The notes beneath the pieces are model-generated. The model saw only the letters and a list, made by a program, of their open reading frames with translations, was not told the origin of the DNA and did not search any database. This document shows positions 1,256 to 34,316 of a DNA stretch of 64,000 nt, piece by piece; position 1 is the first letter of the stretch; each line of letters starts with the position of its first letter. The position numbers were made by a program, and so were the translations under genes. The stretch is from Candidatus Woesearchaeota archaeon (GTDB taxonomy: Archaea > Nanobdellota > Nanobdellia > Woesearchaeales > UBA583), in NCBI GenBank assembly GCA_965205335.1, contig OZ242164.1:64001-128000 (forward strand). The letters are read 5' to 3'.

Positions 1256-1368
1256 CAATAGGATAAATAGGAAAATTTGAAAAGTGAAACATAATTCACA
1301 CTTTTTCTTACTTATTCTTGATATTAAAAGAAAAAGTATTTAAATAAGTGAAAACAAAATTTATAAAT

Positions 1369-11619: not shown

Positions 11620-11735
11620 ACAAAAGACAAAAATAATTAAAGATGTGTGTAAACTTTAGAAACTTAACGATTTATCAATCTTATTAATAGAACAAATAAA
11701 CAAGATTTGAAAAGTGCAGCACAATTCACACTTTT
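11620..11735 (+). mobile_element. Family-B right-end relic (gene tail plus hairpin)
   Basis: GATTTGAAAAGTGCAGCACAATTCACACTTTT shared with 1275 and 29233. Confidence 0.5.
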
Positions 11736-28883: not shown

Positions 28884-29320
28884 TTTGTCTCTACAATATT
28901 CTAATTATTGCTTATTAAACCCATTATTGCTCCAATTATGCCTCCTAATATCAATCCTATAAGTAATCCTAATATTGTTACTATTCCCATCACTATTATT
29001 CTTTTTGTTATTGTATATTCTTCTCCTATAATTGTTCCTATGAATAATCCTATAAACCCTAAAACCACGCCACCATATCTTGCTCCTTTCTCTGTATTTC
29101 TATGTATTGCTTTAATTCTTTTTTTATATGAAATTTTTTTTCTAGCCATAAAAATTAGAGAGTTAAATTATTTATAAATTTATGTCAATTTTGTCTCTGT
29201 CCAGAAATTAATTCACTTAAAACAAAAAAGGAAGATTTGAAAAGTACAGCACAATTCCCACTTTCCTAATTTTAATGATATTATTAAAAGGAAAAGATAT
29301 TTAAGTAGTTGGAGACTAAA
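28884..29320. mobile_element. Family-B end pair enclosing a small membrane gene
   Basis: TTTGTCTCTACAATATT ... GTTGGAGACTAAA inverted termini; hairpin at 29238-29264; internal IS5-type end at 29193. Confidence 0.5.
28901..29149 (-). CDS. Small glycine-zipper two-TM protein
   Basis: GxxxG-rich helices; TATA box upstream. Confidence 0.65.
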   Translation of the reverse strand: MARKKISYKKRIKAIHRNTEKGARYGGVVLGFIGLFIGTIIGEEYTITKRIIVMGIVTILGLLIGLILGGIIGAIMGLISNN

Positions 29321-30653: not shown

Positions 30654-31684
30654 GGCACTGTCCATAAATTCAAATCGAAGAATTAATAAAGTGTAAAGTT
30701 GATAGTTTTTTATGTTAGAACACACCAACTTTACTAATAGTTTACATAAGGAAGTACTTAAACTTTGTCATAGTTTAAGGTTAAGGCCTCACAATTTTGT
30801 GAGGGGTTGCAAACTCTTTAACAATTATCAAAGAGTTTCTATAATAGTCTTATACATCCAATCAGGAAAATCCTTTAGAAGGTTTGTAAGCAACATAGAC
30901 GGCAGTTTAACTATTTGGAAACATTGGTTGCAGTTAAAACGCCTTCCAAAGAAATCAACGCTTCATAAGTGGTTAAAGTTCTTCTCAGTTAGTTTTATCC
31001 GCAACCTAATTAGACTTTCTTTAGAAAATCCTAATCCGGACATTGTAGCAATTGATGGTTCGGGAATTGATGCAGACCATAAAACTACTTATTACAAACA
31101 TCGGATTGGATTTGAACCCAAATCACCTTGGCACAAATTAGATATGATTTGTGACGTACAAGGCTCTAAACAAATAATAGACTTTTCTTTCTTGGTTAAG
31201 AATCAGCATGATTCAAAAGTTGCAAACAAACTTTTCAAAAGACTCAAAATAAAGAAGAGTGTTATTGTGGCAGACAAAGGATACTTTTCCTTTGATCATT
31301 TAGAAAATTTAAATGAAAAAGACATAGATTTGATTTTCCCCCCCAAAAGACTATGCGAAAACCAAGCATAATGCTTTTAAGCATTGGAAAATCAAACAAA
31401 AATACCTGAAAAATAAAGAAATATACAATAAAAGGAACAATGTGGAGAGTGTGTTTTCATCCCTCAAGAGAGTTCAAGGCCTAAATATCAGAAGTAGGAT
31501 ACATTTTATGAAAAAAAGGGAGATGGCATGGAATATTCTTTGGTATAACATAAGAAAAAAACTTTCTTATGTAATTTTCTTCTATGAAAATTGGATAATT
31601 TTCAAAAGAAAAATAATAATGTTTTAGTATCAAATTGTATTTTCATCTCTTTTATTTTAAAAAAATTAATTTATGGACAGAGCC
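30654..31684 (+). mobile_element. IS5-family insertion sequence, 1031 bp
   Basis: 17-bp TIRs GGCACTGTCCATAAATT / AATTTATGGACAGAGCC; 8-bp TSD TATTTGAT at 30646-30653 and 31685-31692. Confidence 0.92.
30712..31627 (+). pseudogene. IS5-family DDE transposase, frameshifted at a C7 tract
   Basis: AIDGSG, HD, VADKGY, then Y..R..VESVFSSLKR in the next frame; removing one C at 31338-31344 restores one ORF. Confidence 0.85.
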
Positions 31685-31701
31685 TATTTGATGAGTTGTT
31701 G

Positions 31702-32074
31702 TGTAAACGGGTGACATATGTCACCAGTCTAAAAATTAACAAGACTTGTTAATTTTATGAAAAAATACGAAATTAGGAAAGTTTTCATAAAACTAAGAAT
31801 TAAAGAAAACTCTTGTTCTAAATGCAAGAAAATACTTGCTGAGAAGTGCAAATACTTTGTAAGTATTCGTACTTTAAAACGTTGACAACAACGTTTTGAT
31901 AAAGAAATATGGAATTATCAAGATAAGTCTACAAGACCAAACAAGATCTATTACAAAGTTACTTTAGAAGCTGAGAAAGCAATTTTAAATCTTTGATATA
32001 GAACTGATTGGAGGAGCTAAAAAGCTTCATAAATTCCTACTAATCAGGATATTTCAGAGATAACCATTAACAGG
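31702..32074 (+). pseudogene. IS481-family left end and decayed transposase 5' half
   Basis: TGTAAACGGGTGACATATGTCACC TIR; ATG 31757 reads ...SIRTLKR*..RF...QDKSTRP...W/GAKKL...ISEITINR with stops and frameshifts. Confidence 0.7.
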
Positions 32075-32316
32075 TAGATAGGGCAGGAAGAGTATTATAT
32101 AAATATTTAAGAGGTAAAATAAGAGGAAATCAGAAACATATTTTGAGAAGAATTATAAAAGTCCTTTTATCTCTAAACAATAATTATGAATATAATCGTA
32201 ACTATAAGTATGTGATGATAACCTCTCTTAGTAATTTATGTAAATTTATAGAAAGAGAAAAAAGATTACTTTCAGATTATGAAGTTAAGAAAATTCTTAC
32301 TTTACTGGGTTACTAA
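32071..32316 (+). pseudogene. Headless 3' fragment of an unknown basic protein
   Basis: 82-codon open frame ending ...YEVKKILTLLGY*, joined directly to the IS481 relic. Confidence 0.45.
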
Positions 32317-32336
32317 TTTTCTAATAAATTTTCTCA

Positions 32337-32658
32337 TATTTATAATGTAAGTGACTTTAAATGAGAATAAAGAATTGTATATTTATAATGTAAGTGATTT
32401 TAAATGAGAATAAAGAGTTGTATATTTATAATGTAAGTGATTTTAAATGAGAATAAAGAGTTGTATATTTATAATGTAAGTGATTTTAAATGAGAATAAA
32501 GAGTTGTATATTTATAATGTAAGTGATTTTAAATGAGAATAAAGAGTTGTATATTTATAATGTGAGTGACTTTAAATGAAAATAAATATTGAAACAAAAA
32601 AGTAAAGAATTGTATATTTATAATGTAAGTGATTTTAAATGAAAGTAAAGAGTCGTAT
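32337..32658. repeat. 43-bp tandem repeat array, ~7 copies
   Basis: Unit ATATTTATAATGTAAGTGATTTTAAATGAGAATAAAGAGTTGT; central copies identical; ~19-bp insertion in copy 6. Confidence 0.95.
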
Positions 32659-32684
32659 AAAAATAAAAAACAAACCTTATATAA

Positions 32685-32718
32685 AAAAGTGCGTATAATA
32701 TACATTATACGAACTTTT
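32685..32718. other. dif/loxP-like tyrosine-recombinase site
   Basis: AGTGCGTATAA-TATACA-TTATACGAACT (11-6-11, arms 10/11 palindromic, extended by A/T runs). Confidence 0.75.
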
Positions 32719-33122
32719 TGAGTGTGGACATGTTCTGAAATCGGGTTTCTAATGGGTTTAGGATCATCTCTTAAAAAAAGTGCTCTTTAAATGGCTCTAA
32801 ATTTGATGAGGTTCTCAAAGTGCAAAATTTGAGCAGTATGTGGTTTCTACAACATTCAAGAGAGTATCAGTTAAGGAGATCGGTTGAAGATATGAAGATT
32901 CTTCAGGATTTTGATGAATAGAAATTAAGAAATCAAATTTTGAAATTTAAATCTAAACTTGAACTCAAATTTAAACCTGAAAATATCATCAAAAAATATT
33001 TCTTTTGTAAATTTCCTGAAGAATTAAAAATTACTAAAAGGTTCAAAAAATTGAAATGTGTTAAAAGTGTGCATTAATTATCACATAGAAATTATACAAA
33101 AATTACAAATTATTAAAAATAT

Positions 33123-33380: not shown

Positions 33381-33464
33381 TAAAACAAGAAAATCATCAT
33401 ATTTCATTATCTTACATCTTTCCAATTTTCTGACCCATTTCAAATTGTATACAATCATATACAC

Positions 33465-33582
33465 TTGTAAATAAACTACAACGAATCCTATCATTTTAGG
33501 TGTTTTTTTGTTATTTATGCATATATAATTGTATATGTTTGTAAATAAACTACAACGAATCCTATCGTTTTAGGTGTTTTTT
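33465..33582. repeat. 44-bp direct repeat, 2 copies, 74 bp apart
   Basis: TTGTAAATAAACTACAACGAATCCTATC(A/G)TTTTAGGTGTTTTTT at 33465 and 33539. Confidence 0.9.
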
Positions 33583-34294
33583 AATTCTCCATTTGTATAT
33601 CATCATCACCTTGACTTGTTTGAATGTTGTCATCCTGGTCTCCTACTTTGGAGCTATCATCTAGTTCTTCTTCTTCAAAGTCCTCATCTATTTCATATTT
33701 GATGTCTTCATCTTGTTCTCCTACTTCGGTGCTATCATCTAGTTCTTCTTCTTCAAAGTCCTCATCCATTTCATATTTGATGTCTTCATCTTGTTCTCCT
33801 ACATTGGTGTTATCATCCAATTCTTCTACTTCGGTGCTATCATTATGTTCCGGCTGGTTACTAACATCTTGTTGTTCTAAATTCTTCCGAATTCGTTCCC
33901 TTTCATCTTTATCCACATGCGAATAACTTAGGTCCCAACTATCACAGAAATTCTTAACATCTTTTATATATTTAAATTTCAATTGAACAACTTTTTCTTT
34001 TTCTGCTACTGTTTTAGATTCTAATGATATTTTTTGTATATCATCTCTCAAATTCAAAAGATCACCTAATACTAAAGTAGGTAAATCATATTGATTTATC
34101 TCTTCCTTTACTTTTAGGTTAAACATCCTGATGTAACCCCTTGCAGTCTGAATGTTAACATCATAAGCCTCAGCAATATACTCAGATGATGTAACATTTT
34201 CCCCTGATTTCCATTTCAGAATCATATCATCAATAATGAAATCAGTCCTTGTGAGCTTTTTCTTATTATTTTTTCTATTAATTTTATCTGTCAT
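33581..34294 (-). CDS. HTH protein with acidic 26-aa C-terminal repeats
   Basis: SSEYIAEAYDVNIQTARGYI HTH; ELDDSTEVGEQDEDIKYEIDEDFEEE x~2.6. Confidence 0.7.
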   Translation of the reverse strand: MTDKINRKNNKKKLTRTDFIIDDMILKWKSGENVTSSEYIAEAYDVNIQTARGYIRMFNLKVKEEINQYDLPTLVLGDLLNLRDDIQKISLESKTVAEKEKVVQLKFKYIKDVKNFCDSWDLSYSHVDKDERERIRKNLEQQDVSNQPEHNDSTEVEELDDNTNVGEQDEDIKYEMDEDFEEEELDDSTEVGEQDEDIKYEIDEDFEEEELDDSSKVGDQDDNIQTSQGDDDIQMEN

Positions 34295-34316
34295 TTTCAA
34301 TTATAAAAAGTCACTA

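Follow-up and report, generated by a model that had tools for sequence, protein, structure and literature searches.

A probable chromosomal dif site of XerA within a defence-gene block of a woesearchaeal genome

What is the function of a short, nearly symmetrical sequence that stands between genes in the midst of a long run of defence systems? The question arises from a 34-bp near-palindrome at positions 32685..32718 of the window (the whole 64,000-nt stretch of DNA that was analysed). An initial annotation had likened the sequence to both dif and loxP, and had suggested that it is either the chromosomal dif or the resolution site of an integrated plasmid or virus. The plus strand reads AAAAGTGCGTATAATATACATTATACGAACTTTT and the minus strand AAAAGTTCGTATAATGTATATTATACGCACTTTT, the latter being exactly the letters claimed at the outset; 15 of 17 positions pair, and the feature is entered without a strand. 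Set out in an 11-6-11 layout the sequence is AGTGCGTATAA-TATACA-TTATACGAACT. The left 11-bp arm, a putative half-site of XerA, occupies 32688..32698 on the plus strand (AGTGCGTATAA), and is followed by an asymmetric 6-bp centre at 32699..32704, the presumed region of strand exchange (TATACA on the plus strand, TGTATA on the minus strand), and by the right 11-bp arm at 32705..32715, again on the plus strand (TTATACGAACT). The inner arms carry TAA-N6-TTA, the criterion used in PMC11840125, the available text of which describes this motif as the most conserved feature of archaeal dif.

The candidate dif is alone among the window's 34-mers in having 15 or more complementary pairs out of 17. One way to judge this is by comparison to a null (random) model: in 100 first-order Markov simulations the mean number of such 34-mers was 0.16 and the maximum 2. 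The palindrome by itself is only mildly improbable, and the real support for the candidate dif is its conservation. Allowing up to three mismatches, the 34-mer has a single occurrence in the window, and none of 100 shuffles contained a match. When scored with a position weight matrix (PWM) built from 27 sites, all from other genomes, the sequence reaches 40.7 bits; the runner-up in the whole genome scores 4.6 bits and the maxima of five shuffles range from 7.0 to 11.9. The uniqueness that had been proposed as a check was borne out, there being one copy in the entire 1.2-Mb genome (a single contig of 1,199,749 bp). By PWM there is no second full dif-like copy in the window or the genome (the next-best place in the window scores -7 bits), and a search of the window for half-sites returned the two arms and no others (2 found, 1.53 expected).

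The location is intergenic: a stretch of 2.2 kb around the candidate dif is free of open reading frames (ORFs) of 100 aa or more, and the lone overlap is with one 58-aa ORF that passes through tandem repeats. All of the features listed by Cortez et al. (PMC2958812), namely 11-bp inverted repeats, a 6-bp spacer, uniqueness, conservation and an intergenic position, are present. Scans of the window for Rfam families (at gathering thresholds) and for tRNAs gave no matches. Contigs from three public runs of one sample, possibly the source of the assembly itself, include one of 1,070 nt that bridges the candidate dif unchanged; among the matches listed for the contigs of these three runs there were no joints or loose ends at the site, a result that carries no weight for or against recombination.

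Conservation was assessed within the genus and then across the order, and the search for the motif in relatives that had been recommended proved positive at both levels. When all 20 genomes of the genus were searched with a 26-mer, an identical 20-bp core, CGTATAATATACATTATACG, appeared in ten of them, at one place in each, and BLAST with the locus added the core in four more (G001, G004, G015 and G016). The core is present in all 12 genus genomes that are at least 90% complete; the six genomes with no match are 71–88% complete. Beyond approximately 26–28 bp the flanks are unrelated in most pairs of genus members. Allowing up to three mismatches, the 22-mer was found in 47 of the 301 genomes sampled from the order; among the 223 genomes of high quality the number is 36, and 39 of the 216 genera are represented. 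There is one place per matching genome, with the exception of G292, which has two. As a control the same 22-mer pattern was reversed; this matched five genomes, showing that some of the three-mismatch matches are due to chance.

Comparison of 28 sites shows where the sequence is free to vary. Most variation is in the 6-bp centre, which is TATACA in 17 of the 28 and takes seven other forms in the remainder; there is further variation at CG[T/C]ATAA. Arm positions 1–8 are nearly invariant, and as these lie inside the search pattern their order-wide conservation is partly a product of construction. Positions 9 and 10 are outside the pattern: the former is symmetric in 25 of 28 sites (18.0 expected) and the latter in 15 of 28 (10.4 expected). 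An excess of symmetry at these two positions is to be expected if one protein reads both arms. The order-wide consensus, GTTCGTATAA-TATACA-TTATACGAAC, provides a simple handle for finding the landmark in fragmentary genomes. A separate observation concerns three loci with homologous flanks (L018 in G014, L020 in G005 and L024 in G019): between G014 and G019, 149 of about 200 aligned positions are identical, yet the centre is TATACA in G014 and TGTATA in G019, the centre of G019 being inverted relative to the flanks.

In a public collection the exact 20-mer is found in 53 species genomes, of which 39 are labelled archaeal (DPANN groups and the Methanofastidiosum type) and 14 bacterial. Many of the bacterial-labelled matches sit on short contigs of low G+C content, and these matches could be either true bacterial dif-type sites or archaeal contigs that have been mis-binned. 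The 14 bins (loci within L059-L102) comprise SR1, Peregrinibacteria, FCPU426 (twice), Limisphaerales (twice) and others, and some of their outer arms are palindromic. A lone exact match in a collection of viral contigs was taken to be chance, because the outer arms do not fit; the ORFs on this contig resemble those of a large eukaryotic virus, as judged by eye and without a family search.

If the sequence is a recombination site, then an enzyme is needed to act on it. The claim that the window contains no recombinase holds for tyrosine recombinases; a broken DDE transposase is present at 30712-31627. The only PF00589 match in the genome is a protein of 274 aa encoded at 1,154,774-1,155,598 (1,155 kb), approximately 1.06 Mb from the candidate dif. 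In Pfam terms it consists of Phage_int_SAM_4 and Phage_integrase; it passes the NCBIfam model recomb_XerA_Arch (NF040815) with 232.5 bits against a cut-off of 220, and its best solved relative is XerA of P. abyssi (4A8E, E 2.7e-47). The proposed search for XerA or Cre-like genes was successful for the former, with one equivalog in the genome, and fruitless for the latter, none being encoded. Alignment with IntI4 (2A3V) leaves 20 residues in XerA where IntI4 has 63. By this alignment the protein is without the IntI-specific additional domain, which the available text of PMC9668308 treats as defining for an integron integrase.

At E <=1e-20, XerA-family genes were detected in 245 of the 301 genomes of the order, 138 scoring above the cut-off (these tallies include eight unpublished genomes). 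In order to determine whether site and gene are linked, 1.5 kb was kept on each side of 30 loci from other families (the counts of site loci include the unpublished G227). In 25 of the 30, xerA falls inside this range, always with the N-terminus facing the site, and in 21 of the 25 the distance from the site to the first aligned xerA codon is 121 nt or less. The five loci that have no xerA nearby comprise four three-mismatch matches, which may be chance matches, and one match with two mismatches. In the window's genus xerA is nearby in none of ten loci: it is 1.06 Mb from the site in the window's genome and 0.28 Mb in the genus member G007, and synteny between these two genomes is scrambled. 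Thus the xerA–dif module that is common in the order is split in the window's genus. Separated and adjacent layouts have both been described in archaea (available text of PMC5357621, with haloarchaeal examples in that of PMC11840125). The adjacent layout of the 25 loci recalls bacterial XerS/difSL and XerH/difH, where, according to the available text of PMC5357621, one recombinase has its site beside its gene as a module; difSL, however, is 31 bp long and has an 11-bp centre, whereas the window's site has a 6-bp centre, its enzyme is an XerA equivalog and the module is split.

The position of the site relative to replication landmarks was likewise to be checked, and here the outcome was divided. 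The clearest result comes from G007, a single contig of 1,540,096 bp, in which the site is at 513,225 and Cdc6 at 1,425,875, separated by 41% of the circle or 147 degrees. The site is 0.4–4 kb from the maxima of compositional skew (detrended GC maximum at 513,638, keto maximum at 517,212, AT minimum at 517,289, change-point at 516.3 kb), and the keto-skew minimum, at 1,426,270, falls at Cdc6. The arc is close to the 122–144 degrees reported for Thermococcales (available text of PMC5357621). The possibility that the repeat-flanked locus is a replication origin was rejected, since in G007 the skew changes at the site with a sign opposite to that of its change at Cdc6. In G103, a genome of another family assembled as a single contig of 909,956 bp, the site is at 182.2 kb and Cdc6 at 588.6 kb, 161 degrees apart; skew extremes are found at 93–110 kb and 602–611 kb, and the site is 72–89 kb from the anti-origin extreme.

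In the window's own genome (G+C content 30.9%) the site lies at 96.7 kb, which is 303 kb or 91 degrees from the only Cdc6/Orc1 gene (993.5 kb); no convincing DnaA was found in this genome, the only match being one of 24.5 bits in an 844-aa frame, and this combination marks the genome as archaeal. Polarity is strong one way from 185 to 975 kb, strong in the opposite sense between 980 and 1,145 kb, weakly reversed beyond that point up to 1,190 kb, and approximately neutral from there, across the ends of the contig, to 180 kb. The site falls within this neutral part, with no sharp switch at the site itself; the switches are at about 180–185 kb and about 1,145 kb, the nearest being some 85 kb away. 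Position therefore supports the identification as dif strongly in G007, loosely in G103 and only broadly in the window's genome. Two further features of the latter are apparent: polarity is very asymmetric about Cdc6, extending approximately 165 kb to the right and, with the other sign, approximately 790 kb to the left, and the sharp switch at about 1,145 kb is close to xerA (1,155 kb).

We conclude, with a probability of roughly 0.85, that the sequence at 32685-32718 is the chromosomal dif of XerA. The conclusion is drawn from sequence comparison, and the reasons for it are the architecture of the site, its uniqueness and conservation, the presence of a lone XerA, the linkage of site and xerA in relatives, and the coincidence with the skew maximum in G007; all of these fit the original suggestion of a chromosomal dif served by a single homomeric XerA. 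Very probably this is a chromosomal dif of a kind already known, here with the enzyme gene at a distance and the site inside an acquired block of defence genes. Arms this similar are suited to a single homomeric enzyme, and the asymmetry of the centre gives the site a direction. By analogy with characterised XerA/dif systems, one XerA monomer would bind each 11-bp arm, and two sites, present as direct repeats on a chromosome dimer, would synapse as a tetramer. Cleavage at the borders of the 6-bp centre would be followed by strand exchange, and two monomers would be restored before division, which is to say that the predicted role is dimer resolution. A literature search combining DPANN or Woesearchaeota with dif and Xer returned nothing relevant. 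As dif, the site would give the chromosome of this DPANN lineage, on which little work has been done, a fixed landmark: the place of dimer resolution and, probably, the region of the terminus.

The site shares with archaeal XerA/dif systems (Pyrococcus abyssi, Thermococcus kodakarensis and Thermoplasma acidophilum) a 28-bp imperfect palindrome of 11-6-11 layout with TAA-N6-TTA, a single intergenic copy, conservation among relatives, and a lone XerA homologue in the genome. The dif of T. kodakarensis, which binds XerA in ChIP-seq according to the available text of PMC11840125, matches the window's site at 17 of 28 positions by hand count. The differences here are the DPANN lineage, the 91 degrees from Cdc6, the accessory DNA and the flanking polar motif described below.

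The chromosome of E. coli K-12 (NC_000913.3) reads GGTGCGCATAATGTATATTATGTTAAAT near 1,590.7 kb, between yneL and hipA, and this we take to be E. coli dif, although the feature table consulted does not mark it. Its letters match the window's site at 20 of 28 positions; for a different comparator, Pyrococcus against a bacterial consensus, the figure in the available text of Cortez et al. is 14 of 28. The centre TGTATA is identical, so that the 11-6-11 reading with the E. coli spacer stands when set against the E. coli letters, and a 14-nt run, ATAATGTATATTAT, is exact. The claimed resemblance of one arm to the XerC arm was reproduced by hand count, with AGTGCGTATAA, the left arm on the plus strand, matching GGTGCGCATAA at 9 of 11 positions. 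A further similarity is the terminus-type position in G007. E. coli differs in having two recombinases, unlike arms and FtsK control, whereas the window's genome has one recombinase and near-identical arms.

The surroundings of the site are not those of the chromosome at large. Between 20 and 180 kb of the window's genome only 15 of 124 ORFs of at least 100 aa have a homologue in G007, compared to 450 of 833 elsewhere. The candidate dif is embedded in this accessory, skew-neutral block of approximately 160 kb, which is densely filled with defence genes. Those in the window include type I and type III restriction-modification systems, OLD-family and AAA_21 ATPases, an RloB protein, an HNH nuclease, a UvrD-like helicase with a GIY-YIG nuclease, DUF4238, and DUF6996/6997 with a methylase. 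A Sacsin/NOV_C protein of 1034 aa is also found within the block. The notion of an integration hotspot on the terminus side, raised in the initial annotation, is upheld insofar as the accessory, skew-neutral block does hold the site, and weakened by the lack of a sharp skew switch there in this genome. On the identification as dif, a large block of defence genes sits at this landmark.

A second kind of signal flanks the site. The 8-mer AAAGTGTG is present 27 times within 1.5 kb of the site in nine of the ten genus loci, against 1.0 expected from the background of G000 (the window's genome) and G007, and all 27 copies point away from the site, being on the minus strand to the left and on the plus strand to the right. 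Counts for AAAGTGWG show the same bias: 28 copies point away and one toward the site in the genus, while in 18 loci of other families 28 point away and five toward, with ten loci leaning away and two toward. Three control motifs gave 0–5 copies each. In G103 all seven copies within 10 kb of the site follow the away-pointing rule. A run of TTTAAAA often precedes the polar motif, which in other genus members forms dense arrays at a spacing of 30–200 nt with no genes between the copies.

In the window's genome the polar element is 40 nt long, AAAAGTGTGAAT-N7-CACTTTTCAAATCTTCC, and has seven copies scoring 37–62 bits by PWM; the next-best place in this genome scores 15 bits and shuffles no more than 10. 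The copies, at genome positions 32,382, 33,560, 43,182, 52,230, 65,294, 75,724 and 93,254, are all on the minus strand and all to the left of the site, at a spacing of 1.2–17.5 kb across 64 kb of defence genes. Four lie outside the window (genome 32.4–52.2 kb). Those inside it, each on the minus strand, are at 1266..1305 (54.9 bits, intergenic), 11696..11735 (AAAAGTGTGAAT...CACTTTTCAAATCTT, 57.6 bits, intergenic) and 29226..29265 (GGAAAGTGGGAAT...TACTTTTCAAATCTTCC, 37.5 bits), the last being 3.4 kb to the left of the candidate dif. A check of the six copies from 32,382 to 75,724 showed each of them to be intergenic. On the right of the site, at a distance of 345 bp, a diverged copy of the polar motif (AAAAGTGTGCAT) occupies 33063..33074 on the plus strand. 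The first 12 nt of the 40-nt element match the left arm of the site at 10 of 12 positions by hand count. The idea that the element is the promoter of one gene family was rejected, as the six neighbouring genes examined share no homology.

The polar motif may represent additional XerA half-sites, signals that direct another protein toward dif or stop it, borders of captured modules, or promoter-like elements. KOPS and Ter are polar or accessory sequences around dif in bacteria. As with these, the XerD-binding XDS of B. subtilis and the repeats of Thermococcales, AAAGTGWG flanks the site and its orientation flips exactly there, and it resembles a half-site; it differs in keeping to the neighbourhood of the site, over kilobases to tens of kilobases, and in not being spread genome-wide. 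We regard as possible, if rather unlikely, a broader arrangement in which dif would anchor a polar array of dif-related elements of 26–40 nt, pointing outward on both sides across the order and, in the window's genome, dividing 64 kb of defence genes into modules. Such an array could be either a platform on which genes are captured with the help of XerA, building defence islands at the terminus, or a polar protein-binding system (a fork trap, a translocase guide or SMC unloading sites) that makes archaeal dimer resolution directional in the absence of FtsK. To our knowledge archaea do not have FtsK, and the motif bears on the open question of how Xer recombination is given directionality there. 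Inverted repeats flank dif in Thermococcales (available text of Cortez et al., PMC2958812), and in T. kodakarensis a domain boundary is set by sequences around dif and not by dif itself (available text of PMC11840125, which also cites XDS).

Several explanations compete with the chromosomal dif. One is that the XerA target is mainly the entry of a gene-capture platform (integron-like, IMEX-like or akin to Acinetobacter pdif) that has built the island, dimer resolution being secondary or absent. The position within the accessory block, the seven minus-strand elements on the left of the site and nowhere else in the genome, with their spacing, and the match of their first 12 nt to the left arm all speak for this. 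In integrons and in Acinetobacter pdif, too, modules are split by short recombination-site-like repeats near the target of a tyrosine recombinase (available texts of PMC9668308 and PMC6449649); here, however, XerA has no IntI domain or IntI-specific insertion, the 40-nt elements are not full copies of dif, and the modules, of 1–17 kb, are multi-gene. The absence of a second dif-like copy from window and genome, and the fact that the same motif forms dense, gene-free arrays in other genus members, also argue against capture, as does the coincidence with the skew maximum in G007, which fits a terminus role. No joint between element copies was seen in the contigs of the three runs, a weak argument given that only contigs were available. 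We therefore consider a capture platform improbable as the main function. Two specific versions were rejected outright: an integron, because the IntI-specific domain is missing from XerA and no integrase is encoded next to the site (xerA being 1.06 Mb distant), and an IMEX-type element at dif, because no two dif-like sites bracket anything, there being neither a second full site nor extra half-sites.

That the sequence instead serves an integrated plasmid or virus for resolution or attachment, with the element's own recombinase acting on it, would suit the IS remnants and acquired genes around it. This half of the original proposal found no support: the site is chromosomal across genus and order, with one per chromosome in the genus and occurrences in 39 of 216 sampled genera, no duplicated site brackets an element, and no recombinase is borne by one, the genome's sole tyrosine recombinase being the distant XerA. 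The viral contig collection contributes a single exact match to the core, in which the outer arms are unlike and the neighbouring ORFs appear by eye to be unrelated. On these comparisons a plasmid or virus site seems already largely refuted, and we give it very little weight. An equally slim chance attaches to an operator for a transcription factor, or a hairpin (terminator or cruciform), with no role in recombination. A 15-bp stem is possible, and in other families the site overlaps the xerA promoter region, where XerA binding may also regulate xerA; but in the genus xerA is 0.28–1.06 Mb away and no gene next to the site is conserved, and it is the sequence, not just the pairing, that is conserved, the asymmetric 6-bp centre included, with several one-sided changes in the arms that break pairing. 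Least credible of all is that a Cre-like recombinase uses the sequence as a natural site of the loxP type. The identity to loxP of phage P1 that had prompted the comparison was confirmed by hand count at 27 of 34 letters in register (arms 11/13 and 10/13, spacer 6/8, using the loxP letters as quoted in the initial annotation). Cre/loxP shares with the window's site symmetric arms and a homomeric enzyme, and G078, elsewhere in the order, has a site with outer arms AACTTCGTATAA / TTATACGAAGTT. However, the genome encodes no Cre-like gene, its sole tyrosine recombinase being an XerA equivalog that does not qualify for the Cre clade; the site is chromosomal and lineage-wide rather than carried by a phage or plasmid; and the likeness follows from a style of half-site common to Xer and Cre.

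Several repeats lie close to the candidate dif. To its left, the DDE transposase at 30712-31627 is IS5-like, its frame interrupted after 219 aa; after it, at 31700-32075, comes a repeat of approximately 374 bp, of which at least eight further copies, 91–95% identical, occur elsewhere in the genome. To the right, a 74-bp unit is present twice at 33448-33595 and recurs at genome 324.5, 676.5, 827.3 and 899.3 kb with 78–90% identity, and a 239-aa ORF with no Pfam match, on the minus strand at 33581-34300, contains 78-bp tandem repeats at 33630-33832. Closest to the site is a tandem array of approximately seven 43-bp units on the plus strand at 32325..32666, which ends 19 bp from it and has no counterpart elsewhere in the genome. 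Every complete unit of this array contains TATAATGTA, a 9-nt run in common with the minus strand of the site.
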